The notes: a model not told the origin generated them from the sequence alone. DNA of 64,000 nt from Deltaproteobacteria bacterium (GCA_030622135.1 JAUXGL010000002.1:24-64023); one strand, 5' to 3'. Counted from the stretch's first letter, positions 11,041-46,359 are shown. Numbers and translations: made by a program.

Positions 11041-11454
11041 ATGGAGCTGTTCAATCAGCGGGCTCCCATCGCCGAGACGTTTGGTATGAAGCTCTCCTTC
11101 GATGACGATGACCGCGCGAACGTCTCGCTTCCCTACAATGCCGCCCTGGATAACGCCATGGGGGGCGTTCACGGAGGGATCATCGCCACCCTTCTGGACA
11201 ATGCCGGTTGGTTCACCTGTGCCCTTGCCCGTGAAGGCGAGGGCTGGGTGGTCACCGCGGAGATGTCTTTCCACCTGTTCCGGCCCGTTTTGAAAGCGCA
11301 TCTGCTGGCCCGGGGAAGGCTCCTGAAATCCGGCAGCCGGCAGGACATCGCCGACATGCGCTGCTGGGACCAGGACAACAACCTGGTGGCCCATGCCACC
11401 GGGAGCTACGTCTACCTGGAGAACGTGCCCATCGAGAGGTCCCCCAAGCCATGA
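11041..11454 (+). CDS. PaaI-family hotdog-fold thioesterase
   Basis: The hotdog thioesterase motif GGVHGG(I)IATLLD is present. An RBS precedes the ATG at 11041, although the ORF track begins at 10990. Confidence 0.8.
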   Translation: MELFNQRAPIAETFGMKLSFDDDDRANVSLPYNAALDNAMGGVHGGIIATLLDNAGWFTCALAREGEGWVVTAEMSFHLFRPVLKAHLLARGRLLKSGSRQDIADMRCWDQDNNLVAHATGSYVYLENVPIERSPKP

Positions 11455-12215
11455 CGGCCGGATCCCAGGCTCTGGTCTCCGTCGTATCTCTCACCAAGAT
11501 ATTCAATGACCGCCAGCGCGGCCGGGAGGAGATTCGCGCCGTAGACGCGGTTTCCTTCGAAGCCCATGCGGGAGAGATCTTCGGGCTCCTGGGAGTCAAC
11601 GGCGCCGGCAAGACCACCACCCTGCGGCTTTTGGCCACCATGCTCAAGCCCACATCGGGGGAGGCCTCGGTCTGCGGCCACTCCATTTCGAAAGAGCCCC
11701 AGGCGGTCCGGCGCCGGATCGGCTTTATGTCCACGGCCACCAGCCTGTACGGACGATTGAGCGCCAAGGAGATGGTTACATACTTCGGGCGGCTCAACGG
11801 CATGAGCCGGGAGGCCATCGAGCAGCGGATCTTGGAGCTGTTCGACCTGTTCGGCATGAACGAGTTCCGGGACCGGCGTTGCGACAAGCTGTCAACGGGA
11901 ATGAAGCAGAAGGTCTCCATTGTCCGCACAGTTTTGCACGACCCCGAGGTGATGATCTTCGACGAGCCCACCGTCGGCCTGGACGTTCTCACCTCCCGCA
12001 CCATCGTGGACTTCGTAAAAGACTGCCGGACCCGGGGCAAATGCGTGCTTTTCTCCACCCACATCATGGAAGAGATGGAGAAGCTCTGCGACCGGGTGGG
12101 AGTGATCCACGACGGTAAGCTCCTGGCCTGCGAGCCGGTGGAGGCCCTGAAGTCCCGCACTCCCTCCGGCCGGGTGGAAGACGCGTTCGTCAAGCTGGTG
12201 GGAGAGCCGGCATGA
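11451..12215 (+). CDS. ABC transporter ATP-binding protein
   Basis: Walker A GVNGAGKTTT, the signature LSTGMKQK and Walker B IFDEPT are present. It overlaps the neighbouring genes. Confidence 0.9.
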   Translation: MTAGSQALVSVVSLTKIFNDRQRGREEIRAVDAVSFEAHAGEIFGLLGVNGAGKTTTLRLLATMLKPTSGEASVCGHSISKEPQAVRRRIGFMSTATSLYGRLSAKEMVTYFGRLNGMSREAIEQRILELFDLFGMNEFRDRRCDKLSTGMKQKVSIVRTVLHDPEVMIFDEPTVGLDVLTSRTIVDFVKDCRTRGKCVLFSTHIMEEMEKLCDRVGVIHDGKLLACEPVEALKSRTPSGRVEDAFVKLVGEPA

Positions 12216-13753
12216 GACTCGGCGCGATGTTCACAGCGCGGCTCCGCCGCAACCCAATGACCCGCGCAGTACTCTCGAAATTTGCGCGTGGCGCGCAAAT
12301 TTTGGCGGTTAGTAGTACAGTCTTTTGCAAGGAGCTCGTAGACGTCCTGCGCGACCGGCGCACCCTGATCTTCATGCTGGTCATCCCCACCGTCGCCATC
12401 CCCGTGCTCATGTGGGTGACCTCCGAGCTGATGACCCACTTCATGGAGAAGCTGGCCCGTGAGCAGGTGGACGTCCTGGTGCTCAACCCCGAAGCCGCGC
12501 CGGAACTGGTCGAGGAGGTCAAAAAGAGGGCCAACCCCCTGGGCCGGGCCCGGCGGGTGGCCGAGTTGCTGAAAGCGAAGGGCGTGGGCGAGAGCGAGCT
12601 GGCCATGACCAAGGGCGAGCCCCGGGCCTTCTTGCGGCTTCTGGAGAAAAAGGGCATCGACCCCGAGGAACTGGCCACAGAGCTCCGGGTCGCCGTTGAA
12701 GACTCCGACTTCAAACTCGAGCCCGGCGCCATCATCCAGAACGCCTTCCCCCCCAATTTCCGCCTGGTCACCGAATTGGATCCGCGGGATTACGACCATC
12801 CCGCAGAGCGGGAGCAAGTACTGCTGGAAGCCGTGCGCACCGACGAGATCGCCGCGGCCATCGAGTTCGCCGACGACGCATTGGAAAAGCTCGCATCCGG
12901 CGACTCTACCGAGATACGAGTTTACTACCTCGACGCCTCCGACCGCTCGAGCACGGCTTTGTCCGGCCTGCGGCGCATATTCAAATCCTTGGGCAAACAG
13001 ATGGTTGCGGAGCGGCTCCTTTCAAAGGAGCTTCCCGCCGGCTTCGCCAACCCGGTGAAGGTCCGTCCCGAGCGTCTCCCCGGCCCCGGCATGTTAGTCA
13101 AGTTCCTCTCGCAGATTCTTCCCTACATGATTTTGATCTTCGCTTTCATGGGAGCCATGTACCCGGCCATCGACCTGGGCGCGGGAGAAAAGGAGCGCGG
13201 CACTCTGGAGACGCTCCTGGTGGCGCCGGTGAGTCGGCTCTCCATCGTCCTGGGCAAGTTCGGCGTGATCCTGGTGGCCGCCCTGGTCTCCGCGGTCCTG
13301 GCCACCATCAGCCTCTCGGTGTCGTTGTATCTGGGCATCTTCTCCACCATCTCCCTGGTCAGCGGTGGCTCCTTCTCCTTCAGCATCCAAGAGGCCCTGG
13401 TTGCCCTGCTGATGATCGTCCCCATCAGCGGCATCTTCGCCGCCCTGCTCTTGGCCCTGTCCATCTTCGCCAAGAGCTTCAAGGAGGGCCAGTCCTACGC
13501 CAGCCCCCTGCAGATGGTCATCATCATGCCCGCCTTCGTCTCTTTCGTTCCCGGCGTCAAGCTGGACTGGCTAATGGCTTCCATCCCGGTAGTCAATGTC
13601 TCCCTGGCGCTGAAAGAAATCTTCACCGGCAACCTGGACCAGCACTGGGCCCACGTGGGCGTAATCTTCCTATCCACCAGCATCTTCGCCGGCCTGCTGC
13701 TCTGGTTCGCCACCTGGTGGTTCCAGCGCGAGCAGGTGCTGTTTAGGAGCTAA
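12212..13753 (+). CDS. ABC-2 type transporter permease (large periplasmic/cytoplasmic loop + 6 TM)
   Basis: One N-terminal TM is followed by a large soluble domain and a C-terminal ABC-2 permease-like TM bundle. It is translationally coupled to the ATPase. Confidence 0.7.
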   Translation: MRLGAMFTARLRRNPMTRAVLSKFARGAQILAVSSTVFCKELVDVLRDRRTLIFMLVIPTVAIPVLMWVTSELMTHFMEKLAREQVDVLVLNPEAAPELVEEVKKRANPLGRARRVAELLKAKGVGESELAMTKGEPRAFLRLLEKKGIDPEELATELRVAVEDSDFKLEPGAIIQNAFPPNFRLVTELDPRDYDHPAEREQVLLEAVRTDEIAAAIEFADDALEKLASGDSTEIRVYYLDASDRSSTALSGLRRIFKSLGKQMVAERLLSKELPAGFANPVKVRPERLPGPGMLVKFLSQILPYMILIFAFMGAMYPAIDLGAGEKERGTLETLLVAPVSRLSIVLGKFGVILVAALVSAVLATISLSVSLYLGIFSTISLVSGGSFSFSIQEALVALLMIVPISGIFAALLLALSIFAKSFKEGQSYASPLQMVIIMPAFVSFVPGVKLDWLMASIPVVNVSLALKEIFTGNLDQHWAHVGVIFLSTSIFAGLLLWFATWWFQREQVLFRS

Positions 13754-13897
13754 ACGGGGGACTTTCACCCCCCGCCCCCCCCGCTCATCCCGGCACGCGC
13801 TTGGCTCCCCTCCGCCTTGAAAAACATTTTGCCGGATCGGTTGATTTGTGCAACATTGGGGCCAACAGACGCAGTGCCAGCCAACCACAGGAGAGAC

Positions 13898-14140
13898 ATG
13901 CAGGGTAAAACCGTGTCGGAGCTGATTGGCGACGTTTTGTCCAGTTATCTTGGACCGAACACCGCCAAGACCGCCGTGAAGACCTTTTCTAAAAAGGAGT
14001 TGGGCCTATCACCGGAAAAACTGACCGCCACGAATGTGCCTAAGCTCATGGACGGCATGCGACCCATGTTACGGACGCTTCTGGGTGAAGACGTGACCGA
14101 AGTCCTGGTTGCGATTATTCAGCGCGAGGTGGGGCAATGA
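13898..14140 (+). CDS. Conserved 80-aa soluble protein, copy 1 of duplicated module
   Basis: MQGKTVSELIGDVLSSYLGPNTAK… is 100% identical at the protein level to copy 2, with only synonymous DNA differences. It overlaps the downstream membrane gene (ATGA). Confidence 0.65.
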   Translation: MQGKTVSELIGDVLSSYLGPNTAKTAVKTFSKKELGLSPEKLTATNVPKLMDGMRPMLRTLLGEDVTEVLVAIIQREVGQ

Positions 14141-14955
14141 AACTGCGTCTGTTGCTGGTGTTTCCGGTTCTGCTGACAATTGGGTACTTGCTGCTGGAGC
14201 TTTTTTTCGGAAAGGACCTATGGTTTGCATCTTCTGTAAAATATTTCATCACTTTCGGGGATGCGCTGGCTTGTCTGGGGTTTACTGCGGCGGCCCTTAG
14301 ATTCAAAGCCGGCGAGCATCTGCGCCGGGCGTGGTTGTTCATGGCCCTGTGTATGTTCACGTTCGTTTGCCTCCGATTCGTCGATGTATTTACGTTTGAT
14401 TCTGTATTTGGCTTGAGCGAGGACGTAAAGAATGCAATCCGAGGCGGCGTCAGCGTTTTGGCCAACATCTTCTGGGTTGTTGGCTTGTGGAAGTTGGCCA
14501 GAGTCATGCATATGACCGGCCTGGGTTTTGGTGTCTCTAAATGGGACCAGCGTCTGGTGCTTGGCCTCGGGATCCTGTTGGGGGTTACCTTTGGCGGCTC
14601 GTCGGTTGTAACCGGTGTGATCGCTGTTATGGACGGCAATCTTTTTGCTTTGAACTGGTTGGCGGCCGGGCTGGCGGATGTCATGGTCCTTTGCTTGATC
14701 GCACCTTTGTTTTTGACTGCTCTGGCCATGCGGGGTGGTTTGTTGGTTTGGCCCTGGGGGTTGCTGGTCGCCTGTTTGCTCGGGTGGCTCTTTGTCGACG
14801 CCTTTCAATCATTGGGCCAGATAGTCGATCTCGACCCTCTAGTCCAAAGGTGTACCATGATCACCTCTCGGACTTGGGCCTGTGCGTTTGGTTTCTCGGC
14901 CGGCATGGCTCAACGAATGATTTTGGGTAGACGCTTCACCGATAAAATCAAATGA
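14137..14955 (+). CDS. Polytopic membrane protein (about 8 TM), copy 1 of duplicated module
   Basis: A 272-aa hydrophobic ORF, roughly 70-75% identical to the paralog at 15251..16069. Confidence 0.65.
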   Translation: MKLRLLLVFPVLLTIGYLLLELFFGKDLWFASSVKYFITFGDALACLGFTAAALRFKAGEHLRRAWLFMALCMFTFVCLRFVDVFTFDSVFGLSEDVKNAIRGGVSVLANIFWVVGLWKLARVMHMTGLGFGVSKWDQRLVLGLGILLGVTFGGSSVVTGVIAVMDGNLFALNWLAAGLADVMVLCLIAPLFLTALAMRGGLLVWPWGLLVACLLGWLFVDAFQSLGQIVDLDPLVQRCTMITSRTWACAFGFSAGMAQRMILGRRFTDKIK

Positions 14956-15011
14956 TACTTTAGGTTTTGCACATAACGGCAGAGAAAGTGCAAGCTATCC
15001 ACTGGAGAGAC

Positions 15012-15254
15012 ATGCAAGGTAAAACCGTGTCGGAGCTGATTGGCGACGTTTTGTCCAGCTATCTTGGGCCGAACACCGCCAAGACCGCGGTGAAGACCTT
15101 TTCTAAAAAGGAGTTGGGCCTATCACCGGAAAAACTGACCGCCACGAATGTGCCTAAGCTCATGGACGGCATGCGACCCATGTTACGGACGCTCCTGGGT
15201 GAAGACGTGACCGAAGTCCTGGTTGCGATTATTCAGCGCGAGGTAGGACAATGA
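15012..15254 (+). CDS. Conserved 80-aa soluble protein, copy 2
   Basis: Its protein sequence is identical to copy 1. Confidence 0.65.
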   Translation: MQGKTVSELIGDVLSSYLGPNTAKTAVKTFSKKELGLSPEKLTATNVPKLMDGMRPMLRTLLGEDVTEVLVAIIQREVGQ

Positions 15255-16069
15255 AACTGTGTCTGTTGCTGGTGTTTTCCGTTCTGTTGACAATTGGGTA
15301 CTTGTTGATGGAGCTTTTTTTCGGAAAGGACCCGTGGTTTGCATTTTTTTCAGGATACTTCACCACTGTCGGTGATGCGCTGGCTTGTCTGGGGTATGCC
15401 GTGGCGGCCTTTAAATTCAAAGCCGGCGAGCATCTGCGCCGGGCGTGGCTTTTCTTGGCCCTGACTTTCTTCTTGTTCGTTTGCCTCCGATTCTTAGATC
15501 GATTTCTATTTGAATTGTTATTTGGCTTGACCGCGGGCGAAATCGATGTAGCCCTGGGTAGCTCCTGCGTCTTGGCCAACATCTTCTTGGCTATCGGCTT
15601 TTGGAAGTTGGCCAGAGTCATGCATATGACCGGCCTGGGCTTTGGTGTCTCTAAACGCAAACAGCGTCTGGTGCTCGCCGTCGGGATCCTGTTGGGGGTT
15701 ACCTTTGGCGGCTCGTCGGTTGTAACCGGTGTGATCGATGTTGTGTTCGGCGATTTTTATTCTTTGAACTGGGTTGCCTCCGGGCTGGCGGATGCCTTTT
15801 GCCTTTGTTTGATCGCACCTTTGTTTTTGACTGCTCTGGCCATGCGGGGTGGTTTGCTGGCTTGGCCCTGGGGACTGTTAACCGTAAGTGTGCTCGGTTG
15901 GCTCCTGGTCGATGCCTCTCAAGCATATGCTCTGGTAGTCGATCTCGACCCTATAACCCTGAGGTGTGTCAAAATCACGGCTCGGACCATGGCCTGTGCG
16001 TTTGGTTTCTCGGCCGGCATGGCTCAACGACTGGTTTTGGGTAAACGATTCACCGATAAAATCAAATGA
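15251..16069 (+). CDS. Polytopic membrane protein, copy 2
   Basis: A paralog of 14137..14955 with the same length, the same start-overlap architecture and the same C-terminal RFTDKIK. Confidence 0.65.
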   Translation: MKLCLLLVFSVLLTIGYLLMELFFGKDPWFAFFSGYFTTVGDALACLGYAVAAFKFKAGEHLRRAWLFLALTFFLFVCLRFLDRFLFELLFGLTAGEIDVALGSSCVLANIFLAIGFWKLARVMHMTGLGFGVSKRKQRLVLAVGILLGVTFGGSSVVTGVIDVVFGDFYSLNWVASGLADAFCLCLIAPLFLTALAMRGGLLAWPWGLLTVSVLGWLLVDASQAYALVVDLDPITLRCVKITARTMACAFGFSAGMAQRLVLGKRFTDKIK

Positions 16070-16217
16070 TACTTTAGGTTTTGCATGCACGGAGCGTCGG
16101 ACGGTTCTTGGCCGTCCTCATTGCGTTGTGGCTGGCTGCGCGGGCCCTTAGCCGGGTCGCTGACGGCTTGTTTGTCGGTTCCAGACGCGCTAGGTTCCAC
16201 CTGCGTTTTTTGGAGGC

Positions 16218-16775
16218 TTGACGATGCAAAAGGTTGAAGTCTGGTTGGTTCGGCACGGGCAGACCGATCACAACGCCCAGGGTCGGCTGAGTGGTTGGAC
16301 CGATGCGGCCTTGACCGAATTGGGACGCGATCAAGCCCGCTGGCTTAGAAAGCACATCGAAGCGGAGTCATTCGATAGCGTCTGGTCTTCCGACTTGGGT
16401 CGAGCCAGGGACACGGCCCAATTGGCCTGGGGTTCTTCGGTAGCTACCGATCGTCGTCTGCGGGAGATTCATTTCGGCGATCTGGAGGGGGAGACTTTCC
16501 AGGGCCTGGATAAAAAAAACCAGGACGCCCTGTTGACCTTCAGCGGCTTTAGTGCTCCGGGTGGTGAAAGCGTCGAACAGTTGGAAGAAAGAGTAACGGA
16601 GTTTATGGATTCTCTGGCGCCGGGCCGGCATCTCCTCTTCACCCACGGCGGCGTTATCCGCTGCGTGATGCATCGGTTGCTCAACACCCAGTGTTTCTTA
16701 CCCAACGGCTCCCTGGTGGCGGTCGACTGGATCCCGAGAAAGCTGATCTTCGTTCGTGAGAACGAATTAAGGTAA
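16218..16775 (+). CDS. Histidine phosphatase family protein (phosphoglycerate mutase / alpha-ribazole phosphatase-like)
   Basis: The RHGQTDHN catalytic motif (VWLVRHGQTDHNAQGRLSGWTD) is present. Confidence 0.8.
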   Translation: MTMQKVEVWLVRHGQTDHNAQGRLSGWTDAALTELGRDQARWLRKHIEAESFDSVWSSDLGRARDTAQLAWGSSVATDRRLREIHFGDLEGETFQGLDKKNQDALLTFSGFSAPGGESVEQLEERVTEFMDSLAPGRHLLFTHGGVIRCVMHRLLNTQCFLPNGSLVAVDWIPRKLIFVRENELR

Positions 16776-16860
16776 AACAGTGACGGGGCCGATTGGTGGT
16801 ATCCGTTCAGGCTGTCTGGTTATCTTGGGCCGAACATCGCCAACCCCGTAGCCGATCCGA

Positions 16861-17430
16861 TCAGGGTTTCTTCAGCACGGCCAGGTAGTTGCGAAACTCC
16901 GCCTTCAGCGCGGTGTACTCTCGGTGATCCACCTGGAGCTCCGAGGCGATCTGACGGATCTCGTTGTCCTCCACCGAGGATATGGACAAGTCGGCGGCGG
17001 AGACGGCGAACAGGCAGCGGAGCAGGCCCAGCTTTTGCTCGCGCGTGGCCAGCTGGCCGAACTCCCGGGTAACCAAGAAGTTCTCGGTGCCGCCGAAAAG
17101 CTTTGCGTGGGTCTTGGCCATCTGCACCACCAGGATGGCCAGCTCCGCGTCGAGACCTCCCTGCTCCAACACGATGCGCTCCATGGCCCGGGTCTCTTCC
17201 TCGCTGATGTTCAAGTCGGCATGGGCGACACGAGACAAGAGATACGCGAACGAGGCGATGTACTTGGCCCGCTCGGGTTCCATCCGGTCGAGCTTTTGTA
17301 CTATCTGACGGACAGATTCCGTATCCGCGGACGGTTCTTCCTCTTTCTTCTTCTTGGAAAGGCCCAGAAAATCGAGTATGGACATGTCTCCCTCCGGCGG
17401 CAGTATCGCGGACATAGATGTGATTGACAA
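16861..17430 (-). CDS. TerB-like (tellurite-resistance TerB family) protein
   Basis: It is an all-helical protein with paired acidic motifs typical of TerB/DUF533-like domains. The true start may be the internal Met of MSILDFLGL. Confidence 0.5.
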   Translation of the reverse strand: MSITSMSAILPPEGDMSILDFLGLSKKKKEEEPSADTESVRQIVQKLDRMEPERAKYIASFAYLLSRVAHADLNISEEETRAMERIVLEQGGLDAELAILVVQMAKTHAKLFGGTENFLVTREFGQLATREQKLGLLRCLFAVSAADLSISSVEDNEIRQIASELQVDHREYTALKAEFRNYLAVLKKP

Positions 17431-17455
17431 GCCCGTTCCTTCCTCAATATAAGGG
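17350..17455. repeat. Direct repeat copy A (about 95 bp, spans the 5' end and upstream region of the TerB gene)
   Basis: It aligns at about 85% identity with 20012..20115 (…aagcccagaaaatcgagtatggacatgtctcc…gatgtgattgacaagccc…). Confidence 0.85.
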
Positions 17456-17647
17456 CGTTGTCAAGTATTTTGACCTGTTCGTTGACTTGTTCTAGGCAGC
17501 AGACTCCAAAAGCTGACTCCAAAAGCGTGGGAAATGGCGAACAGGCGCTGGCCGAACTCAGAAGAGCTGACGAGATACTCAAAACCAGCAAATGATACCT
17601 AAACAACTTGACAACGTCCCATTTCCGTACTTTCCGTCCCTTCGGTC

Positions 17648-18484
17648 GTGACCGTGACTGGGAAACCGGTGAAACCTGCTGTGCACACTTCCGATCACTC
17701 CACACACCCTGAAACCTGTGCATACTGCGGAGCCGTCCTGGATGAGAATTACTACTTCTGTCTTTCCTGTGCGACACCGTATAAAAGCGTTGAGTCTGTT
17801 CTGCCGCCTGCGCGCCCGGCGCCGCCGACCACGGGTTTCTTGATCGCCAAGAAAGCGCCCCATGTGATGCCCCTTTTCTGGACGTATGTGGCGGTCGTCG
17901 TGGGAACTGCACTGTTTAGCTTCTTCGTATTCGGAGAGCGACAACTGGAGCTTGTGCTGATTTTTCAAACGCTTGCGGTTTTTGTCACCACTTGTGTTTT
18001 TGCCAAGATACACTGGTCGTCACTGATGGTGCAGTTTAGGCGTTTCGGCTTTCTCAAAAAAGAAGCTGTGCTGGGGTTGATGGCTCTGGTGCCGTTGTTG
18101 GCCGTCAATTATTATATATACCACAGTTGGCTAGTGGATGGGTGGGGCGTCAAGGAGACGTTGCCAATTCTCCGCCTGCGCGACTCTGGCCTGGGAGAGC
18201 CTGCTTTGATCCTGCTTTTCTGTGTCTTCCCTGCTGTCACCGAGGAGATCGCATTCCGTGGGCTCGTCCAGCACTGGCTACAGATCGCCGTATCTCCGTT
18301 CTACGCGACGGCGCTGGCGTCGCTCCTCTTCACTGCACTGCATTTTTCAGTTTTCAGCGCGCCATACATCTTCGTCTTGGGAATGGTACTCGGCTGGGTG
18401 AAGCGGGAAACCAACAGCCTCTATCCATCCATGGCGATGCATTTCCTTCATAATCTGGTCGTTATTGATTTTTTTTCACACTGA
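17648..18484 (+). CDS. CPBP-family intramembrane metalloprotease (CAAX protease/Abi family) with N-terminal zinc-ribbon
   Basis: The CPBP motifs EEIAFRG…, FTALHF and HFLHN are present. The N-terminus has CAYCGAVLDENYYFCLSCATPY (CxxC…CxxC), and the start codon is GTG. Confidence 0.75.
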   Translation: MTVTGKPVKPAVHTSDHSTHPETCAYCGAVLDENYYFCLSCATPYKSVESVLPPARPAPPTTGFLIAKKAPHVMPLFWTYVAVVVGTALFSFFVFGERQLELVLIFQTLAVFVTTCVFAKIHWSSLMVQFRRFGFLKKEAVLGLMALVPLLAVNYYIYHSWLVDGWGVKETLPILRLRDSGLGEPALILLFCVFPAVTEEIAFRGLVQHWLQIAVSPFYATALASLLFTALHFSVFSAPYIFVLGMVLGWVKRETNSLYPSMAMHFLHNLVVIDFFSH

Positions 18485-18529
18485 TGATAATTCAATTTCC
18501 GTTATACATATGGAAGGAGGTGATTCATC

Positions 18530-19096
18530 ATGGACTTCGGAGTGTATCTGATTGCTAGTGTAATCTGCGGAATCATCGCAGCCGTAATCGCTTCTGGCAA
18601 GGGGAGAAACGGCTTGGGTTGGTTTTTTGGAGGATTCTTCCTGGGAATCGTCGGCATCGTCATCGTGGCCGTCATTCCCAACCTGAAGCAGGAAAAGGCC
18701 CGGTGGGAGGAGGATGACATCGAGCAGCACCGCCTGCGCGAGCGAATGAAACAGGAAAAAATTAAGAACGAGTCGTTTCGCGGTCACGCGGCCGGACGTC
18801 TCGATGCCCACGACGGTGCTCTCGGCATGGATACCCGCTCGATTCAAGGCCCACCTCCAACACCCGGTATGCTGACAGAGGGGCTTCAGAGATCGGGGCC
18901 TCCGCCAAACCCGTCAGAGGCCATCTGGTATTACGACCTCAACGGAGAAACCCGTGGGCCCGTATCGGAGACAGATATCAAGGCGATGCTTCGGTCCAGG
19001 CAAATCGGGGGCACTACGATACTGTGGTCCGAGAGTATGAGTGAGTGGACGCCTGCAAAACAGATTGAGACGTTTCGCTCCGTGGCAGGTTCATGA
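18530..19096 (+). CDS. Membrane protein (2 TM) with C-terminal GYF-like/DUF4339-type domain
   Basis: It has N-terminal TM helices and a C-terminal AIWYYDLNGETRGPVSETDIKAMLRSRQI…WSESMSEWTPAKQIETF, which resembles the GYF-like fold. Confidence 0.5.
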   Translation: MDFGVYLIASVICGIIAAVIASGKGRNGLGWFFGGFFLGIVGIVIVAVIPNLKQEKARWEEDDIEQHRLRERMKQEKIKNESFRGHAAGRLDAHDGALGMDTRSIQGPPPTPGMLTEGLQRSGPPPNPSEAIWYYDLNGETRGPVSETDIKAMLRSRQIGGTTILWSESMSEWTPAKQIETFRSVAGS

Positions 19097-19995
19097 ACCA
19101 AAAAACCGAGGGCACCGCAGCTCTCGACGGCATCCTCGATGGCAAGATCCCAGACCGGGACGAAGTCGAGGATCGCCTCCGGGAATGGATCAGCTTTGCG
19201 GCATCAATAAATCTGCAGTTCAATCTCGAAATAGACGGCAACTCGTTCAATCTCCTCGCCGATAACAAACCGTTCCCGGCAAAGGACATAGAACCGGACT
19301 TGACCAGTACGGTTTCGAGTGCCTTAAGCGAGCTTCTCAGGATCTTCAACAAGGAAGAGAGGCGGAGGGTTTTCTCGACAATTCGGAGCATTGAATATAG
19401 GAAGGGCGTGGAGACTCAAACCCTTTTTACAGTCGGGCCCGACGGGGAGATCCACACCCGATCGAGAACCGCCGAAGCCCAAACTACCGCTGCGCCTCGT
19501 CCGTATACCCGCAAGGAGAAAATCCGCACCGGAGTCATCGTTGGCGCTTCCGCCCTGGTGGCTTTCGCAATCTCCGCACTCTTCGTAGATTACGGTTCTC
19601 TATTCAACCGCACCTTCGAGCGAGTCAAAACCTTTCGTGCCGCCGGGCTGGAAGTCGAAAACAAAATTTTCCACGCTTACTTTACCGTCGAGAAGAAAAC
19701 CGCAGTAGGCGGGGGGAAAACGCTGCTGCTCGTATTGAAGCGAGGCGAGGCGTTCCCGAAAGCTGACTCTGACTTCGAGCAACTGATCACCGACTCACCG
19801 GGCTCCATTTCCGCTCGTGTGACCATCGAGGCGCTCGCGCGCGGCTACGTACGGTGTGAGTTTTACGACCAGCAGGGCAAATTCCTGAGTTTCTACATGC
19901 AAAGGATCTCTGGTCTCAGGCAAAATCAGACCATTGAGCTAAACATACCGCTTCCCAGCCAAAAACGCCCTGAGCGCTTGATTATCACTTACTAG
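19093..19995 (+). CDS. Hypothetical protein with one internal TM helix
   Basis: It is translationally coupled to the previous gene (ATGA). I recognise no family. Confidence 0.5.
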   Translation: MNQKTEGTAALDGILDGKIPDRDEVEDRLREWISFAASINLQFNLEIDGNSFNLLADNKPFPAKDIEPDLTSTVSSALSELLRIFNKEERRRVFSTIRSIEYRKGVETQTLFTVGPDGEIHTRSRTAEAQTTAAPRPYTRKEKIRTGVIVGASALVAFAISALFVDYGSLFNRTFERVKTFRAAGLEVENKIFHAYFTVEKKTAVGGGKTLLLVLKRGEAFPKADSDFEQLITDSPGSISARVTIEALARGYVRCEFYDQQGKFLSFYMQRISGLRQNQTIELNIPLPSQKRPERLIITY

Positions 19996-20011
19996 AAACC
20001 ATCTCTCTTTT

Positions 20012-20115
20012 TTCTTCTTCAAGCCCAGAAAATCGAGTATGGACATGTCTCCCCCCGGCGACAGTATCCATAACGCAGATGTGATTGACAAGCCCACCAC
20101 TTCCTTCATATAAGG
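20012..20115. repeat. Direct repeat copy B; contains a relic of the TerB 5' end (…GGDMSILDFLGLKKKKE…) on the minus strand
   Basis: It aligns with copy A. The minus-strand translation reproduces the TerB N-terminal peptide and then diverges. Confidence 0.85.
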
Positions 20116-20122
20116 ATGTGAC

Positions 20123-21442
20123 ATGACTTTGAAACTGGGAATCCGCCGGGAGGACAAGAGCGTCTGGGAGCGCCGGGTACCGCTCACTCCGGATCACGTG
20201 CGCCGGCTGGTCAAAGACGGCGTCCCCGTCGTCGTGCAGCCCTCCAAAACCCGTGTATTTCCCGATGAGGCCTACCGGGAGGCCGGGGCGGAGATCGAAG
20301 AAGATCTCTCCTCCTGCCCGGTGGTGCTGGCGGTCAAGGAGATCCCCTCCAGTCTCTTCGTGTCCGATCACGTCTACGTGTGCTTCGCTCACGTGATCAA
20401 GGGCCAGCCCTACAACATGCCCATGCTGCGCGAACTGCTGGACTCCGGCGGTACTCTGATCGACTACGAGAAGGTGACCGACGGGCAGGGGCGGCGGCTG
20501 ATCTTCTTCGGGCGTCATGCCGGTCTGGCCGGAATGATGGACTCCCTGTGGGCGTTGGGGCGGAGGCTCGAGACCGAGGGGTTCGACACCCCCTTCTCCG
20601 CGCTGCGACCGACTCACTGCTACCAGAACCTGGACGAGATCAAGCAAGCCGTTCGGGAGGTCGGCTTGAAAATTGCCGATGCGGGGCTCCCCCCGGCGCT
20701 CACCCCGATGGTTTTCGGGTTCGCCGGTTATGGCAACGTGTCCCTGGGCGCCCAGGAGATCTTCGATTTACTCCCCCACCAGGAAGTGGCCCCCGAGCAG
20801 TTGCTCAAGCTCCCCAAGACCAATAACCGGCAGGAGCTGGTCAAGGTGGTTTTCAAGGAAAAGCACATGGTGCAGCGGGCGGATCCGAAGGCGCCCTTCG
20901 ATCTCCAGGAGTACTACGACCACCCCGAACGCTATAAGCCCGACTTCGACCAGTACGTGCCCTTGCTGACCGTGATGATCAACTGCATCTACTGGGCGCC
21001 TCAGTACCCCCGGTTGATCACCAAGACTCGGCTGAGAGAGCTATACGCAGGGCAGTCCCCGCCCCGGCTCCGGGTGATCGGAGACGTCAGCTGCGACGTG
21101 GAGGGGGCGGTGGAGTGCACGCTCAAGTGCACCCAGCCGGGAGAGCCGGTGTTCGTGTACCGGGTGCAAGACGACGCCGCCGTCATGGGCGTGAAGGGTG
21201 AAGGGCCGGTGGTGCTCGCCGTGGACAACCTTCCCTGCGAGCTGCCGATGGAGTCATCGCAGGACTTCGGTGACGCGCTCATGCCCTTCATACCCGCCCT
21301 CGTGGAGGTCGACTTTACTCAGCCGTTCGAAAAGCTGGATCTGCCCGTCCCCATCAAGAGGGCGACGATCGCCCACCGGGGGGTCCTGACGCCCGATTAC
21401 GGTTACCTGTCGAGTCATATCGACAAAGCCCAAGGAGATTGA
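20123..21442 (+). CDS. Lysine-ketoglutarate reductase / saccharopine dehydrogenase (L-lysine-forming), AlaDH/PNT-fold
   Basis: The LKR-type N-terminus GIRREDKSVWERRVPLTP is present, followed by a Rossmann fold GFAGYGNVSLGA. Confidence 0.75.
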   Translation: MTLKLGIRREDKSVWERRVPLTPDHVRRLVKDGVPVVVQPSKTRVFPDEAYREAGAEIEEDLSSCPVVLAVKEIPSSLFVSDHVYVCFAHVIKGQPYNMPMLRELLDSGGTLIDYEKVTDGQGRRLIFFGRHAGLAGMMDSLWALGRRLETEGFDTPFSALRPTHCYQNLDEIKQAVREVGLKIADAGLPPALTPMVFGFAGYGNVSLGAQEIFDLLPHQEVAPEQLLKLPKTNNRQELVKVVFKEKHMVQRADPKAPFDLQEYYDHPERYKPDFDQYVPLLTVMINCIYWAPQYPRLITKTRLRELYAGQSPPRLRVIGDVSCDVEGAVECTLKCTQPGEPVFVYRVQDDAAVMGVKGEGPVVLAVDNLPCELPMESSQDFGDALMPFIPALVEVDFTQPFEKLDLPVPIKRATIAHRGVLTPDYGYLSSHIDKAQGD

Positions 21443-37531: not shown

Positions 37532-38653
37532 TCATGGCCGGTCCTTTCTTTTCGTCCTCTTTCCTCGCGAAGAACCTTGTTTCCGTAGCGGCGCTACTTT
37601 GCCAAGGATTTCCCGATAGTACTGTGTGTCACGGAGTCTCCGGGCTATAGACGCTGTAGCGAAAAGATCCTCGGGCCTGAAGTGCCCAGCGCGGAAATCT
37701 TCCACGAATCTGTGCTCACGCTCCGTGTAGTTGAACACATGACGATCAAAGAACTTCCTGACCGTCCACTTCATTTCTTCGACCGATGGTACGGGGAGAT
37801 CACGTGGGACAACACTAAGCAGTTCAGACTTGACGTCAGCCTCGGTGTAGGAGCCGATCGCGTTCCCCCGGAAGTACTCGAACTTCCCGATCCGGGTCAT
37901 GCCAAACAGGATCACGAGATCGCGGAATAACTTGAGATCGAACTTGATCTCTCCATCTAGAACCTCTCGGGACAGCAAGTAGATGTCGAATAGATGGCGG
38001 ATCTTCCGTTTGGTCAGTAGTCCAATGTGGTCGGGAAAATCCAGGCGTTCCTTTGCATCGACCATGGCTATCGCCTTGCTGGCGTATAGCTCCTCTTCCT
38101 TGAGCGTGACGACCTTGAACGTAGGGGCGACCTCATCTTGCACGATCGGCCATTCTCGCGCTACCGTACCCAGTACGGAGTCCCCATAGCGGTAGGAGAT
38201 GTCGAGTTCGATGCTGTCCCTGCGTCTGTACATAGATCGATAGGTCAACTCGTACTGCACGAATCGATCGGCTTTCACGGATGTGATCTTGAATCCCATC
38301 CCCAGATTCCGAGCGATTGCCTCCAGTATATCCTTGTCCCTGTTCTTCCGTGTGCTCACCTCCCGCTTGCCCTTCTTCCCCAGATTCCGGTTAGTGACGA
38401 AGTCCAAGTCAAGGTCGGTCGAGAACCTGTACATGTCACGGTACAGGAAGACAATCGCCGAGCCTCCCATCAAAGCGAAATCCCTGCCTATCTCAGAGAC
38501 CGTAATTGCACGCAGCACGCGTGTTAGCCAAAGCACCTTCTCCCCCGTCGGGAACTCCACTTGGTGCTTTCGCGCCCAGGCCTCGATGAGATCCTGACCT
38601 ATCGAACCCGGCTCGGCCGATGCTGATGCCATTTTCTTACTTGGCTTAGTCAT
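37532..38653 (-). CDS. AbiEii/AbiGii-type nucleotidyltransferase toxin (type IV TA / abortive infection)
   Basis: The NTase motif GGSAI…DLDLDF and a DUF1814-like C-terminal region are present. The local GC is lower. Confidence 0.75.
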   Translation of the reverse strand: MTKPSKKMASASAEPGSIGQDLIEAWARKHQVEFPTGEKVLWLTRVLRAITVSEIGRDFALMGGSAIVFLYRDMYRFSTDLDLDFVTNRNLGKKGKREVSTRKNRDKDILEAIARNLGMGFKITSVKADRFVQYELTYRSMYRRRDSIELDISYRYGDSVLGTVAREWPIVQDEVAPTFKVVTLKEEELYASKAIAMVDAKERLDFPDHIGLLTKRKIRHLFDIYLLSREVLDGEIKFDLKLFRDLVILFGMTRIGKFEYFRGNAIGSYTEADVKSELLSVVPRDLPVPSVEEMKWTVRKFFDRHVFNYTEREHRFVEDFRAGHFRPEDLFATASIARRLRDTQYYREILGKVAPLRKQGSSRGKRTKRKDRP

Positions 38654-39536
38654 CGAACAGTCCTTCCGGCACGTGCAGATTCCATTGCCGATTCAGTGTT
38701 CCACCCTCCCCGCGCGCGAATTTCGCAGGTGTTTTCGGCAGGTAGGGCCGCAGAGAATCGATTTCGTTTTCAGCAACTTTCCATTTCTCAGCATATCGCT
38801 GCACGACCAACCCAACCCTTGAAACAAGCGAGGGCGTTCGGTATTGCTTCACATACTCAATCATGCGGCTACCGCGGACTCCTTCGGCTCGATTCAGAGC
38901 ATGGGCAACGTTCTCCCATCCCTGTGCGTACTTCGGGCGATGGATAGCGTCAATCAGCGTCCGCTCCAGATCCGTGATGCGAACAGAACCCCGGCCGTGA
39001 TGCCTGGTGACAATACCTGTTTCTTTCGGTAACGGTGTTTTGACAAAACGAATATTGAATTCTCCCATAGGCCGCTGCTTCCGCTTGGATTTCGAGACCA
39101 CATAGTACTCCGTTAACCTGCCGTAGCGCGATAGCCCGTACAGAAGAAGAGCTGTACCGTAACCGAAGACAACTTCCTCACCATAAACCGCCTGGACGGC
39201 CTCAATAGGATCGGTAATGAATGTGCCATTTTTCCCGTCCGCCACAACATACAGCCCTCGTGGTCCGTTCTTGAGCCGCTGCAATACGCCCTTTTGTTGG
39301 AGACGGCGCAGACCGTAGTCCGGCGATACATCGGTGTATTGTTTTGCTAAACGAGCCACCTCCGTGGAAGAAATGATGTCCCTTTTCCGCAGGGCTCTCA
39401 CTAGTGCCTTCCAGGCGGTTTTGCTGCGGCCGTTCCTGCTTCTTTTCTTCACGGCATGCCTTTCCGCCTCGCGCAATTGTCCGGGTTGAGCAACTTTTGC
39501 ACAACGACATGTGCAAAAGTCGCAATTGGCGGACAC
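38646..39536 (-). CDS. AbiEi-family antitoxin / transcriptional regulator
   Basis: It is upstream of and overlaps the NTase gene, with a wHTH-like N-terminus and an AbiEi-like C-terminus. Confidence 0.65.
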   Translation of the reverse strand: MSANCDFCTCRCAKVAQPGQLREAERHAVKKRSRNGRSKTAWKALVRALRKRDIISSTEVARLAKQYTDVSPDYGLRRLQQKGVLQRLKNGPRGLYVVADGKNGTFITDPIEAVQAVYGEEVVFGYGTALLLYGLSRYGRLTEYYVVSKSKRKQRPMGEFNIRFVKTPLPKETGIVTRHHGRGSVRITDLERTLIDAIHRPKYAQGWENVAHALNRAEGVRGSRMIEYVKQYRTPSLVSRVGLVVQRYAEKWKVAENEIDSLRPYLPKTPAKFARGEGGTLNRQWNLHVPEGLFDD

Positions 39537-39861
39537 GCATCCCTGTGTTCTCGCGGTTCAGGAACAGACTGACGCATCACCTCGGTGGCCTGCTCCATCA
39601 GCTTGCTCGGTTCGAATTTCGTTTTCATCGTCAAACCTTCTCCAGGAGATCAAGAGCGTCCTGCGGGCGGAGCCTTTACCCTTGCTCCCTGACTGAGCAG
39701 CTACCGTCGAAGAGAAGAACAATGTCAGTACCTCTGTCTGTAAGATTCTCTAGGAAATTTCAGAATGATTGGATTGTAAGCAGAAAGTGCCTTTCATTCA
39801 AGAGAGAAAGTAGGACGCCATCTGATTATATAAACGTGTACCCACCTTCGGGTCTTACCGA

Positions 39862-41631
39862 TCAGATCTGTAGTTCGCGGACGGTTTCTTCCCGCGGCAC
39901 CCCGTCCTCGTCCCAGCCGCGCAGGCGGTAGTAGGGGTCCAGCATCTCGTCCAGCTTGACCAGGCGATTGCGGGAGGCGCCTTCCTCCAGTTTCTCGTTG
40001 AGAAACCGCGGAGGCAGGCTGTCGTCCTTTCTGGTGAGGCCGGCCTTGGTGTTGAAGAGTCTCTCCAGGGTATAGATGCGCTTGCCGATGGTGATGAGTT
40101 CCTCTTCGGTGAAGTCGAGCCCGGTGACCAGGTTGAGCATCTTTTTGAAGGTGTCGACGCCCATGGCGAACTGTAAAAAACGGCACAGGCCGAGCGAGTC
40201 CACGCAGGCGGAGATGTCCTGGAGCAGGACGACGATCTCCGCCTTGCCCGCCGTGGAGAACCGGTCCATGAAGCAGGGTTGCCCCAGGATCTCGGGGCCG
40301 ATGACATAAGCGCGCATGTGGCAACCTCCCCGGTTGGAGGTCGCGTAGGAAAGCGCCTGCCCCTGGACGCCGCGGGGATCGTAGGCGGGGAGCTCCAGGC
40401 CCTTGACCTGCATGGACAGCTCCGGTCGCTGGTACTTCTCGGAAAGCCGCTTGGAGCCCAGGGCCAGCTCGCCGCCGAAGCCGCGCCGGTAGGCGATGTC
40501 CTCTACCAGCCGCCGCACCCGCCCGGCGTCTCCCCAGGAGATCTTTTCGGGCAGCAATCCCAGCTCGGACAGCTCCATGGCGCATCCGATGGTGTTGCCG
40601 CAGGAGATGGTGTCCAGCCCCAGCTCGTTGCAGCGGTAGTTGGCTTCGGTGATGGACACCAGGTCGCTTACCAAAAGCTGAGCGCCGAAGGCCCAGACCG
40701 ACTCGTATTCCGGCCCCTCGCCCGCTTTATTGGGGGTCCGGGTCGTTCGCCCGCAGGCGATGGGACACCGGTAGCACGCGCTTTTGGCCTTCAGGATGGT
40801 CTCGGCGATCTTCTCGCCGCTGGTCCCCTCGGCGTCGTTGAAAACGCCTCGCCGGAAGTTCTCGGTGGGGTACATCCCGTGGGCGTTGATCACGTTGACC
40901 AGCACCGACGTCCCCAGGACTTGCAGCGACTTCCCGGTCACCGGGTTCTTGTCGACCAGCCGGTCGAGGAAGGCACTGAGCTCTCCCAGCCCTTCCGGGT
41001 CGGCGACTACGACATTCTGGGTTCCGTTGACCACCACCGCCTTGAGATTTTTCGAACCCATGACCGCGCCCAGGCCGCCCCGGCCGGCGGCCCGGTCCTT
41101 GTCGTTCATCACCGCCGCGAACAACACCTGGTTCTCCCCCGCGGGACCGATGCTGGCCACGGACGCCTTGGAAGAGGTCTCGTCCAGAAGCGCCCGCTTG
41201 GTCGCCGGGGTGTCCTTTCCCCAGAGATGGGCCGCGTCTTTCACTTCGATCCCGTCGTCGGTGACATGTAAATACCTGGGCTGGTCCGCCTTGCCGGTGA
41301 TGATGAGTCCGTCCAGGCCGGTTCGTTTCAGGGCCGCCCCGAAGGTGCCCCCCGAGCTGGAATCGCAGATGGTCGTGGTCAAGGGGGAGCGGGAGACGAT
41401 CTGGTAGCGGCCGCCGGTCAGCACCGCCCCGGTCAAGGGACCGGTGAGGAAGATCAAGGCGTTTTCTGGGGAAAGCGGATCGGTCTTCTCGTCGCAGAGC
41501 TCGGTGTACAGCTTTACCCCCAGGCCTCTTCCGCCCAGATAGCGTCTCCTGAGATCGTCATCGATCTCCAGATCCTCCTGCCGGCCCGTCGAAAGGTCGA
41601 TCTTTCTTATCTTTCCCATCCAGCCGTGCAT
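39862..41631 (-). CDS. Tungsten-type aldehyde:ferredoxin oxidoreductase (AOR family)
   Basis: AOR N- and C-terminal domain motifs are present (GKIRKIDLSTG…, DxxGxC Cys ligands CYRCPIACGR). The start was chosen at MHGWMGKI because an AAGAGG RBS precedes it; the ORF track extends to 41799. Confidence 0.85.
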   Translation of the reverse strand: MHGWMGKIRKIDLSTGRQEDLEIDDDLRRRYLGGRGLGVKLYTELCDEKTDPLSPENALIFLTGPLTGAVLTGGRYQIVSRSPLTTTICDSSSGGTFGAALKRTGLDGLIITGKADQPRYLHVTDDGIEVKDAAHLWGKDTPATKRALLDETSSKASVASIGPAGENQVLFAAVMNDKDRAAGRGGLGAVMGSKNLKAVVVNGTQNVVVADPEGLGELSAFLDRLVDKNPVTGKSLQVLGTSVLVNVINAHGMYPTENFRRGVFNDAEGTSGEKIAETILKAKSACYRCPIACGRTTRTPNKAGEGPEYESVWAFGAQLLVSDLVSITEANYRCNELGLDTISCGNTIGCAMELSELGLLPEKISWGDAGRVRRLVEDIAYRRGFGGELALGSKRLSEKYQRPELSMQVKGLELPAYDPRGVQGQALSYATSNRGGCHMRAYVIGPEILGQPCFMDRFSTAGKAEIVVLLQDISACVDSLGLCRFLQFAMGVDTFKKMLNLVTGLDFTEEELITIGKRIYTLERLFNTKAGLTRKDDSLPPRFLNEKLEEGASRNRLVKLDEMLDPYYRLRGWDEDGVPREETVRELQI

Positions 41632-44664: not shown

Positions 44665-46359
44665 TTATTGGCCGAGGTGGGTTGGTGGCTTTGCCAGAAC
44701 CACCTGATTCCTACCGTTTTCCTTGCCTTCATAGAGAGCGTCATCTGCTTGTTTGATACATTCATCGACACCAATGGCTTCATCGTATGCACTGACACCA
44801 AAGGTCATATTGACTGCTAATTCGAGCTTTTCATGGTGAAATGTTTTATCTGCTATTTCACGTCTCATTTTTTCAGCCAATATTCCTCCACCGTCAAGCT
44901 CAGTCTCTGGAAGTAGAAAAAGAAACTCCTCACCCCCCCAGCGGCAGACTAGATCCTGCTTCCTCATCGTTTCAAGCATCAATTTAGCGATAGAAACAAG
45001 TACAAAATCGCCGGTTTTGTGTCCGTATTCATCATTGAAATTCTTGAATTTGTCTATATCACATAATATAAAGACAAAAGGTCTCTTATTCCTTTCGAAG
45101 CGTATCTTTTCCTGCTCAATACTCTCTAACATATCCCGACGGTTTGACAATTTTGTAAGCGGGTCGGTCCTCGAGAGTAGGTCCAGTTTTTTATTCATGC
45201 CAATTTTCACACGATACAGATAGAACAGGAAAATTACAATAGACAGAGTAACGAAAAGAAAGATAATCAACATCCTTCTTCTTGATTGTTCAATTATGTT
45301 GTCCTTTTTCAGCAGTTCAATCTCTTTTTCTTTCTTGTCGGATTCGTATTTTGCTTGCATCTCTGCAATCTTTTTACTGCTTCGTTCGGTAAAAATACTA
45401 TCCTTTACTTCTGAATGCTGTTTGTAAAATTCAAGTGCCTTTTTATTGTTACCCAATTCCGAATGAATCTCGGAGAAGTTATTGTAGATTTCTTGAGTTA
45501 TGTCTTTTGCTTCGATTTCTTTAGCCAATTTCAAACCCCGTTCCAGGTATGAAATTGCTTTATCATGCATCTTTAGTTCTCTATAGACGGATCCGATATT
45601 GGTCATTGAGGTGGCAACATCGAGTTTTTCCCCGATTTCTTCTGTTATTTTCAATGCTCTCAGGAAATACTCCAGAGTCATAACCGGATTGCCTAAATGG
45701 GAGTTGGCAATCCCAATATTGGTCAAAGTTTCAGATATACCTTTTTTATACCCGATCTCTTCTTTTATTTTCAATGATTTATTGTAATATTTCAAGGCTT
45801 TATTGTGTTTTTCCTGTTCCATGTAAACAAGTCCAATATTGTTCAAATAAGTCGCCAGTCCTTTTTTGTCTTCGATTTCTCTTGCAATTTTGATAGATCT
45901 TGTAAAGTATTCTATAGCTTTGTCGTGATTTCTCAATCTCCAGTAAATAAGTCCAATATTGTTCAAAGTTCTGCTAATCCCATTCTTATTATCAATTTCT
46001 TCAAATATTCTCAATGATTCAATAACATGTCCCAAAGCCTTGTCATAATCACATTTGTAATAATAGCCTATTCCGATATATCTTAGAGCCGTGGCTTCGC
46101 CTTCAATGTCTTTTAGTTTCTGCGCTAATTTCAAAGCCGCGCCGGCATGTTTTATGGCGTTTTCAAACGATGTTCCAAGATTAGCCATTGAAAGGTCATT
46201 TAAGACTTGAACCTTTTCTGTGCCGTGAACCGTTGGGAGCTTGCTCTCCAGTCGCTTGATTTCTTCATCAATTTCAGCCGCAAAAAGACACAACCCAAAA
46301 AAAGTTATGATGAGAACAATACCAAGGTGTAAATATTTATTAATATGTAGAGTTTTCAT
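44665..46359 (-). CDS. TPR-repeat membrane-anchored GGDEF diguanylate cyclase (AT-rich gene)
   Basis: It has a signal or TM sequence, about 8 TPR repeats, a TM helix and a GGDEF domain with the canonical RWGGEEF motif. The gene is markedly lower in GC than its surroundings. Confidence 0.85.
   Translation of the reverse strand: MKTLHINKYLHLGIVLIITFFGLCLFAAEIDEEIKRLESKLPTVHGTEKVQVLNDLSMANLGTSFENAIKHAGAALKLAQKLKDIEGEATALRYIGIGYYYKCDYDKALGHVIESLRIFEEIDNKNGISRTLNNIGLIYWRLRNHDKAIEYFTRSIKIAREIEDKKGLATYLNNIGLVYMEQEKHNKALKYYNKSLKIKEEIGYKKGISETLTNIGIANSHLGNPVMTLEYFLRALKITEEIGEKLDVATSMTNIGSVYRELKMHDKAISYLERGLKLAKEIEAKDITQEIYNNFSEIHSELGNNKKALEFYKQHSEVKDSIFTERSSKKIAEMQAKYESDKKEKEIELLKKDNIIEQSRRRMLIIFLFVTLSIVIFLFYLYRVKIGMNKKLDLLSRTDPLTKLSNRRDMLESIEQEKIRFERNKRPFVFILCDIDKFKNFNDEYGHKTGDFVLVSIAKLMLETMRKQDLVCRWGGEEFLFLLPETELDGGGILAEKMRREIADKTFHHEKLELAVNMTFGVSAYDEAIGVDECIKQADDALYEGKENGRNQVVLAKPPTHLGQ

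Follow-up and report, generated by a model that had tools for sequence, protein, structure and literature searches.

A three-gene membrane operon combining a predicted CPBP/Rce1-like intramembrane protease with a GYF_2 protein and a member of a new protein family

Proteins encoded by the three-gene locus

The 64,000-nucleotide stretch of DNA analysed here (hereafter the window), listed as Deltaproteobacteria bacterium (GCA_030622135.1 JAUXGL010000002.1:24-64023), carries at positions 17648-19995 three open reading frames (ORFs) on the plus strand, here called genes A, B and C and together the trio, which encode membrane proteins. Gene A encodes a predicted CPBP protease with an N-terminal zinc ribbon, gene B a GYF protein with two transmembrane (TM) helices and gene C a protein of 300 amino acids with a single TM helix. 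This composition, proposed in the initial annotation of this DNA, was confirmed by the ORFs themselves, by matches to PF02517 and PF14237 and by AlphaFold2 (AF2) models. What is new is the combination of a CPBP protease and two partners dedicated to it, one of which comes from a new protein family. The three genes constitute a self-contained operon, so far seen only in Planctomycetota, which is inherited and has at least once been transferred as a unit. The features of the three genes are as follows.

17648..18484, plus strand: gene A, predicted CPBP/Rce1-like glutamic-type intramembrane protease, 278 amino acids, GTG start (PF02517)
17717..17770, plus strand: predicted zinc ribbon of A, C24-x-Y-C27 … C38-x-x-C41, with invariant cysteines
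18242..18259, plus strand: CPBP motif 1 of A, EExxxR (E199, E200, R204), invariant
18329..18343, plus strand: CPBP motif 2 of A, FxxxH (F228, H232), invariant
18440..18454, plus strand: CPBP motif 3 of A, HxxHN (H265, H268, N269), invariant
18514..18522, plus strand: Shine-Dalgarno-like AAGGAGGTG, 7 nucleotides 5' of the ATG of B, read from the sequence
18530..19096, plus strand: gene B, 188 amino acids, two TM helices and a GYF_2 domain (PF14237 and alignment of 13 orthologues)
18926..19072, plus strand: GYF_2 domain of B, residues 133-181 (PF14237)
19093..19995, plus strand: gene C, 300 amino acids, bitopic, no family match (AF2 model)
19510..19578, plus strand: single TM helix of C, residues 140-162 (AF2 model)

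Residues 185-271 of A match the Rce1-like family PF02517 (E=2.5e-19; 69.8 bits, cut-off 22.4), and orthologues of A with 40-62% identity are present at all trio loci. The three CPBP motifs are invariant in 38 homologues of about 50-60% identity and in 13 of the locus orthologues, and in the same proteins C24, Y26, C27, Y36, F37, C38 and C41 of the N-terminal segment CxYCG…YFCxxC are unchanged. All Pfam zinc-ribbon models remain sub-threshold on this segment, PF13240 scoring 16.7-19.5 bits under a cut-off of 25, and AF2 models it at a predicted local distance difference test (pLDDT) value of about 92-94. The model of the whole protein (pLDDT 91.4, predicted TM-score (pTM) 0.81) presents a predicted cytoplasmic zinc ribbon and an amphipathic helix, followed by seven long membrane helices. 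Its top matches, and the only meaningful ones, in the Protein Data Bank (PDB) by Foldseek are MmRce1 (4cad) and SpdC (6u0o_A), both with a probability of 1.0 and TM-scores of 0.46-0.51 at an E of only 0.02, and a PDB profile search with A gave no informative relative. Protein A has the Rce1 fold, together with an invariant full set of glutamic-type CPBP catalytic motifs and a predicted N-terminal zinc ribbon with invariant cysteines. The invariance of the three motifs argues for retained chemistry, and a proteolytic role is favoured because every catalytic residue is kept, so that A is apparently an active CPBP protease. Its cytoplasmic juxtamembrane linker, VLPxxRPxxLTEGELI, contains P53 in 31, R56 in 21 and P57 in 25 of the 38 sequences. 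The NCBI call for this gene begins seven codons downstream, at an alternative start at 17669, giving 271 amino acids. An Rfam scan of 13500-20400 returned a single sub-threshold hit, in which part of the A coding sequence (17986-18082, plus strand) resembled the wcaG RNA (E=0.13; 25.8 bits, cut-off 42); it was taken as chance.

Protein B begins with a hydrophobic two-helix hairpin (residues ~4-50), which is followed by a basic helix (~67-103, nucleotides 18728-18838), a variable proline-rich linker and the C-terminal GYF_2 domain, with the latter covering positions 1-49 of the 50 in the PF14237 profile (E=1.9e-15, 56.8 bits, cut-off 25.8). This architecture is common to 67 homologues, 58 of which carry GYF_2 in their precomputed Pfam annotation, and the basic helix is strongly conserved, with the consensus RRLREQLRQERIKxEAFRxYxxxRLDxHDxxLGxDTR. 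Lysine and arginine residues number 15 in the loop as compared to 68 in the termini, a distribution that points to an N-in/C-in topology, in which the two ends lie on the cytoplasmic side and the GYF domain with them. When the trio was compared with PADLOC-DB v2, neither A nor C gave a match and B matched BnzA at just E=0.029, across the TM hairpin; in PHROGs, B gave weak matches only, aligning the TM hairpin with phage membrane proteins of no assigned function. Pfam scans with sub-domains of B (residues 1-106) and of A (residues 1-73) gave generic 2TM or zinc-ribbon hints only. Eukaryotic GYF domains of the CD2BP2/GIGYF type bind proline-rich peptides, and full-text literature searching for CPBP together with GYF, and for DUF4339, GYF_2 or PF14237, found no characterised bacterial GYF_2 protein.

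Protein C matches nothing in Pfam, NCBIfam, PADLOC or PHROGs, and Pfam scans with residues 1-137 and 171-300 taken separately also returned nothing. Structure prediction, which had been suggested for this protein at the outset, gave a confident model (pLDDT 89.7), but no PDB match at E<=1e-3. In the model, two alpha/beta domains (residues 1-130 and 185-300) are separated by the TM helix (140-162) and by an amphipathic helix at the membrane interface (167-178). Weak Foldseek hits were to ACT domains of aspartokinases and to designed ferredoxin folds (best E=0.007), and a PDB profile search with C revealed no close or informative relative. The N-terminal domain, counted as 139 residues, lacks a signal peptide and leads into the one TM helix, and residues 1-130 are presumably cytoplasmic and residues 185-300 periplasmic. 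In the TM region, G150, A154, F164, V165 and Y167 are almost invariant, and the C-terminal alpha/beta domain contains a near-invariant YVRCE motif (nucleotides 19846-19860). The proline-containing linker (residues 131-143, nucleotides 19483-19521) includes the cytoplasmic juxtamembrane sequence TxxPPxPLTRREK, in which T131 is invariant and P134, P135 and P137 are found in 21, 21 and 23 of 32 sequences, respectively.

A word-indexed search with C recovered 52 homologues, nearly all of about 300 amino acids, with every named one coming from a Planctomycetota metagenome-assembled genome. An exhaustive profile search extended this to 518 clusters at 50% identity, 272 of them below 1e-30, and among the 150 clusters listed nearly all are ~300 amino acids long with near-full coverage of the profile. 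Protein C thus represents a new protein family of at least 518 clusters without a Pfam or NCBIfam model. Shorter paralogues of 173-181 amino acids, which consist of the C TM helix and the C-terminal (periplasmic) domain only, were seen in two loci (L018, 8414-8959; L021, 6001-6522) with no A or B nearby, and the one in L018 lies just 3' of the gene for a 1384-amino-acid alpha-2-macroglobulin-like protein.

Conservation of the operon and its insertion between TerB and LKR

Genes B and C share a 4-nucleotide overlap, ATGA at 19093-19096, and translational coupling of B and C is well founded because this overlap recurs across loci (at least 12 of 17). The coupling ascribed earlier to the two membrane proteins after A stands, and at the A-B junction a spacing of 45 nucleotides without overlap separates two genes of one operon. 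Further trio loci were gathered by exact protein look-up, by a scan of one genome per GTDB species and by tblastn with the window proteins, and comparisons of gene order use the 16 other loci with enough upstream DNA, or 17 when the window is included. The order and strand of A-B-C are kept in all 16, even though the most divergent copies of A, B and C share only 40%, 38% and 32% identity, respectively, with those of the window, and the pairwise identities of the three proteins are correlated with each other (r=0.71-0.74, 13 loci). The proposal of a compact membrane module, here shown to be conserved, is borne out by this constant neighbourhood and by the correlated divergence, at r of about 0.7. 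The flanks of the trio change in every locus and elsewhere consist of housekeeping genes such as those for UvrA, PdxJ, TrpA, DapB, PurE, MutL and ribosomal proteins L28 and S18. No recurrent fourth gene emerged from all-against-all clustering of ORFs of at least 90 amino acids, with no other gene present in more than three loci. Only one copy of the trio was seen in each locus examined, and no second copy was found within the 64-kb window. The joint recurrence of A, B and C is far beyond chance, and the genes are neighbours elsewhere rather than each mapping to an unrelated housekeeping family. It is very probable that the three genes function as a conserved unit whose CPBP protease is of the active type.

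The surroundings of the trio in the window carry the marks of its arrival, in the form of the following features.

16861..17430, minus strand: TerB-family gene (PF05099, E=3.3e-15), native at the insertion target and outside the module
17348..17454, no strand assigned: direct repeat copy 1, 107 nucleotides, left scar, comprising the TerB 5' end and the ancestral intergenic region between TerB and LKR (lysine-ketoglutarate reductase)
17455..17647, plus strand: upstream untranslated part of the inserted cassette, within the segment that relatives lack; promoter presumed
20009..20115, no strand assigned: direct repeat copy 2, 107 nucleotides, right scar, comprising an orphan TerB 5' fragment and intergenic sequence, next to the LKR start at 20123

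Relatives without the trio were recovered by a metagenome scan with LKR, and in these the gene order is ABC ATPase, ABC permease, a variable part, TerB (minus strand), LKR and SDH, with TerB directly divergent from LKR. Amino acid identities to the window are 80% for LKR, 84% for TerB and 91% for the ABC permease in L024, and 78%, 84% and 86%, respectively, in L025; L027 and L028 are more distant relatives, the TerB of L027 being 56% identical. Empty sites at the TerB-LKR junction are present in L024, L025 and L027. The two repeat copies in the window are 81% identical, and each of them aligns to the one junction that L024 and L025 possess. On the minus strand, copy 1 contains a promoter-like site (17430..17402) that is duplicated at 20091..20063, and a 41-amino-acid N-terminal fragment of TerB was located by tblastn at 20091-19969. 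GC content at third codon positions (GC3) is 0.63-0.65 for the trio, whereas TerB has a value of 0.80 and the ABC, LKR and SDH genes one of 0.84. Because of the empty sites in relatives, the flanking direct repeat and the atypical GC3, it is concluded that a cassette of ~2.55 kb (about 17455-20008) entered the ancestral TerB-LKR junction, between native TerB and the genes of the saccharopine pathway, with duplication of ~110 nucleotides, in agreement with the initial placement of the trio in an inserted segment. The closest homologues of the trio proteins are 54-64% identical, while databases hold host relatives at 78-91%, which suggests a distant planctomycete donor. At the other loci, the GC content of the trio is near that of at least one flank in 10 of 12, and the trio of L009 is compositionally atypical (0.48 versus 0.57-0.61). 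In the upstream part of the cassette (17455..17647), no promoter-like site on the plus strand and no Rfam match were found; a 22-codon ORF, MANRRWPNSEELTRYSKPANDT, was seen there by eye at 17525-17593 (plus strand).

The adjacency of TerB had been read as a clue to a role in defence or stress. This reading was not upheld, since TerB is native at the target (GC3 0.80) and is kept, with its neighbours unchanged, in relatives that lack the trio, and TerB is near the trio in none of the 16 other loci. The adjacency is an accident of the insertion site and TerB a bystander.

A variable spot lies between the ABC permease and the 3' end of TerB (window 13754-16860, L025 3828-6388, L027 6367-6386). 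It is empty in L027, holds a gene for an 811-amino-acid VIT+VWA protein in L025 and, in the window, a tandemly duplicated two-gene module and a histidine phosphatase. The duplicated module (13817-16069) encodes a small protein of ~80-107 amino acids and a polytopic membrane protein of 272 amino acids, the copies being 94% identical in the former and 71% in the latter, with a GC3 of 0.60-0.65 that is atypical like that of the trio. A third, partial copy of its small gene is located at 16769-16848, just before the TerB 3' end, and the module has no match in Pfam, NCBIfam, PADLOC or PHROGs. Elsewhere in the window, a 564-amino-acid diguanylate cyclase with TPR, TM and GGDEF parts (44665-46359, minus strand) is encoded where the GC content drops locally to about 35%, as compared to ~60% for the genome, and looks like a recent foreign acquisition, and 38001-40000 exhibits a lowered GC content (0.53-0.55) with a strongly negative GC skew.

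Relation to known systems, proposed mechanism and alternatives

No described system matching the trio was found in Pfam, NCBIfam, PADLOC, PHROGs, the PDB or by full-text literature searching, and the earlier statement that the module could not be mapped to one therefore holds, with C being without a family and without a close PDB or literature match. MmRce1, a type II CAAX prenyl endopeptidase, shares with A the PF02517 domain, the fold and the motifs EExxxR, FxxxH and HxxxN at an identity of 16-17%, whereas A adds the predicted N-terminal zinc ribbon and two dedicated partner genes; prenylated CAAX substrates are not known from bacteria. SagB-SpdC (6u0o) is, to our knowledge, the only solved bacterial CPBP complex. 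In this complex of a polytopic CPBP-fold protein with a single-pass partner, SpdC holds the TM helix of SagB against its own TM3 and the TM3-TM4 loop and thereby orients the outer domain (bioRxiv 10.1101/2020.05.21.109470), and A and the bitopic C could be arranged alike. However, the putative catalytic residues are not needed for the function of SpdC, whereas in A every one of them is invariant, and SpdC-SagB contains no GYF partner. Furthermore, SagB is a glucosaminidase, whereas C has no recognisable enzyme domain and possesses an extra cytoplasmic domain. MroQ of S. aureus is a bacterial CPBP protease that processes a membrane-associated peptide precursor (AgrD/AIP maturation), but it has no homologous operon partners, belongs to another phylum and acts on another client.

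The myxosortases MrtX/MrtC/MrtP, MrtS and MrtJ are glutamic-type CPBP proteins with lineage-specific N-terminal extensions and dedicated clients. A matches the MrtS and MrtJ models weakly, below the family cut-offs, and B and C lack the Cys-containing tripartite C-terminal sorting signal. The idea that C is a myxosortase client by virtue of its near-invariant Cys255 was rejected, as this residue is part of a folded strand, 45 positions before the C-terminus, with no TM helix after it. The best NCBIfam match to the membrane domain of A (residues 82-273, E=3e-21) is NF041647, a fusion of an ABC permease with a CPBP domain, but A reaches only 75.8 bits against a cut-off of 435, has no permease domain, and the neighbouring permease is native. 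That ABC-2 permease (12212-13753, plus strand) lacks a CPBP half, and its NF041647 bits together with those of A would exceed the cut-off of 435, which is probably a coincidence of generic similarity.

The favoured reading, to which a probability of about 0.5 is assigned, is that of a membrane complex built round an active CPBP protease A, with C docked on it and B bridging the two. In this reading, A, B and C would assemble in the inner membrane into a single complex, with catalysis assigned to A, and a physical complex of the three proteins is considered rather probable in its own right. The bitopic C, which would have its ACT/ferredoxin-like domain on the cytoplasmic side and its other alpha/beta domain on the periplasmic side, would dock on A via its TM helix, as SagB does on SpdC. 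B would be anchored by its hairpin with both ends in the cytoplasm, and its GYF_2 domain would bind the proline-containing linkers of A and C, holding protease and partner together; B is a plausible A-C bridge because eukaryotic GYF domains bind proline peptides and both A and C carry such linkers. A would then cleave a membrane-anchored client, for which C itself is the first candidate, and the cleavage of C could free its cytoplasmic domain in response to a cue sensed in the periplasm, which would amount to a switch based on regulated intramembrane proteolysis (RIP). The assignment of C as the substrate and of B as the GYF bridge is tentative and rather doubtful. Carried to its furthest point, the trio would be a three-component RIP device, in which a periplasmic signal read by the C-terminal domain of C licenses A to cleave C within the juxtamembrane linker on the cytoplasmic side. 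B would serve as an adaptor that recognises proline motifs and brings the substrate to A, and the freed ACT-like domain would act on a cytoplasmic target; this version is rather unlikely.

Several points weigh against the favoured complex. The complex itself, the GYF ligands and the substrate are all inferred. The C-terminal domain of B scores well above the PF14237 cut-off, but the conservation of the proline motifs of A and C is no more than moderate, and neither motif contains the PPG core that is typical of ligands of eukaryotic GYF domains. The cytoplasmic domain of C bears no recognisable DNA-binding or enzymatic signature beyond its weak likeness to ACT and ferredoxin-like folds (best E=0.007). 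SpdC, the structural precedent, functions without proteolysis (bioRxiv 10.1101/2020.05.21.109470). Finally, horizontal insertion at a site with differing cargo in relatives also fits an accessory or competitive function.

The strongest rival to the protease complex takes up the precedent of SpdC and assumes that A is a non-proteolytic scaffold like SpdC or LnsB, which positions the periplasmic domain of C for envelope biogenesis with B as a cytoplasmic tether, the catalytic residues of A serving some purpose other than to cut B or C. The Foldseek match of A to SpdC equals that to MmRce1, C is bitopic with a well-folded periplasmic domain in the AF2 model, and SpdC scaffolds its single-pass partner by TM contacts, with its putative catalytic residues being dispensable (bioRxiv 10.1101/2020.05.21.109470); another CPBP protein, LnsB, involved in lipoprotein N-acylation, appears in PMC7387801 as part of a two-component acyl-transferase system. 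However, strict invariance of three catalytic motifs over the 38 homologues argues for chemistry, and the periplasmic domain of C resembles no known enzyme. The scaffold is considered improbable, if less so than the remaining alternatives. Among these is a sorting or maturation protease, with A processing exported or membrane clients encoded elsewhere, in the manner of the myxosortases with their Cys-containing C-terminal signals or of MroQ with AgrD, and B and C serving as specificity or regulatory subunits rather than substrates. Clients of characterised bacterial CPBP proteases are often encoded elsewhere (PMC11980579; bioRxiv 10.1101/2021.12.29.473670), and A does match MrtS, MrtJ and Mrt_core at E values of 1.9e-10, 2.2e-9 and 3.7e-4, but these scores are far sub-threshold (41.2 versus 130, 37.8 versus 75 and, for Mrt_core (NF040914), 20.5 versus 100 bits, respectively). 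Neither partner looks like a client, as C lacks the tripartite C-terminal signal and ends in a folded strand (…RLIITY) without a terminal TM helix or an Arg cluster, and B ends in its GYF domain without a sorting signal; no candidate client family was identified, with clients elsewhere in the genome not having been searched. Such a role is regarded as quite unlikely.

An accessory immunity or defence module against bacteriocin, toxin or phage, as the initial annotation proposed and as has been put forward for Abi/CPBP proteins encoded beside bacteriocin genes, is given the same low standing as the sorting protease. It would be consistent with the horizontal insertion of a cassette of atypical GC3 beside an ABC permease-TerB stretch with variable cargo in relatives, with the likewise atypical composition of the L009 trio, with the suggestion that CPBP proteins act in bacteriocin self-immunity (bioRxiv 10.1101/2023.06.07.544157) and with an NTase_sub_bind/NTP_transf_2 pair, read as toxin-antitoxin-like, 2.7 kb 3' of the trio in L104 (11187-11935), in that locus only. 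However, no PADLOC model matches A, B or C, the flanks at other loci are housekeeping genes, the GC content of the trio resembles that of one or both flanks in 10 of the 12 other loci, TerB is unassociated with the trio and only a single trio copy was seen in each locus examined; nor was a toxin, bacteriocin or other gene found to recur beside the trio among the ORFs of at least 90 amino acids compared, smaller peptide ORFs not having been compared systematically. The framing as defence or stress via TerB is not sustained and nothing links the trio to phage defence; a role in the physiology of the envelope or membrane, rather than in defence, is considered the most likely one for the module. 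The least credible alternative pairs A with the ABC-2 transporter 4 kb upstream (11451-13753) as a two-gene version of NF041647. The permease covers positions 6-400 of the 636 in this model (E=3.1e-109, 366.5 bits) and A positions 437-631 (E=3e-21, 75.8 bits), and in L002, too, an ABC pair is located about 2 kb 5' of the trio. Against this pairing speak the native state of the permease (GC3 0.84) as compared to the later insertion of the trio (GC3 0.63), the presence of the same CPBP-less permease in L025 and L027 with no trio nearby and the rarity of ABC genes in the vicinity of the trio (2 of 17 loci), the L002 permease being of a different family with no NF041647 match. As the leading explanation, the combination of the trio with the upstream transporter was rejected on the same grounds, namely a native permease, an inserted trio and an adjacency that is not conserved, and any such split system is considered highly improbable.

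Significance for CPBP proteins and GYF_2 domains

Bacterial CPBP/Rce1-like proteins are very numerous, and only a few have known partners or substrates, such as SpdC-SagB, MroQ-AgrD, the myxosortases and LnsB. The trio adds a CPBP protein whose likely partners come from strict gene linkage. One of these is a GYF_2 protein, with a domain for which full-text searching found no bacterial role, and the other belongs to the family of C, with its at least 518 clusters. At the same time, a guilt-by-association call via TerB is corrected, as TerB stands beside the trio only by virtue of the landing site. Since the module is small (2.3 kb), moves as a unit and has high-confidence models, the question of partner and substrate is testable by co-expression. 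If the RIP device were true, a bacterial GYF_2 domain would have its first assigned function, and no earlier signalling switch would have combined a CPBP protein with subunits dedicated to it.

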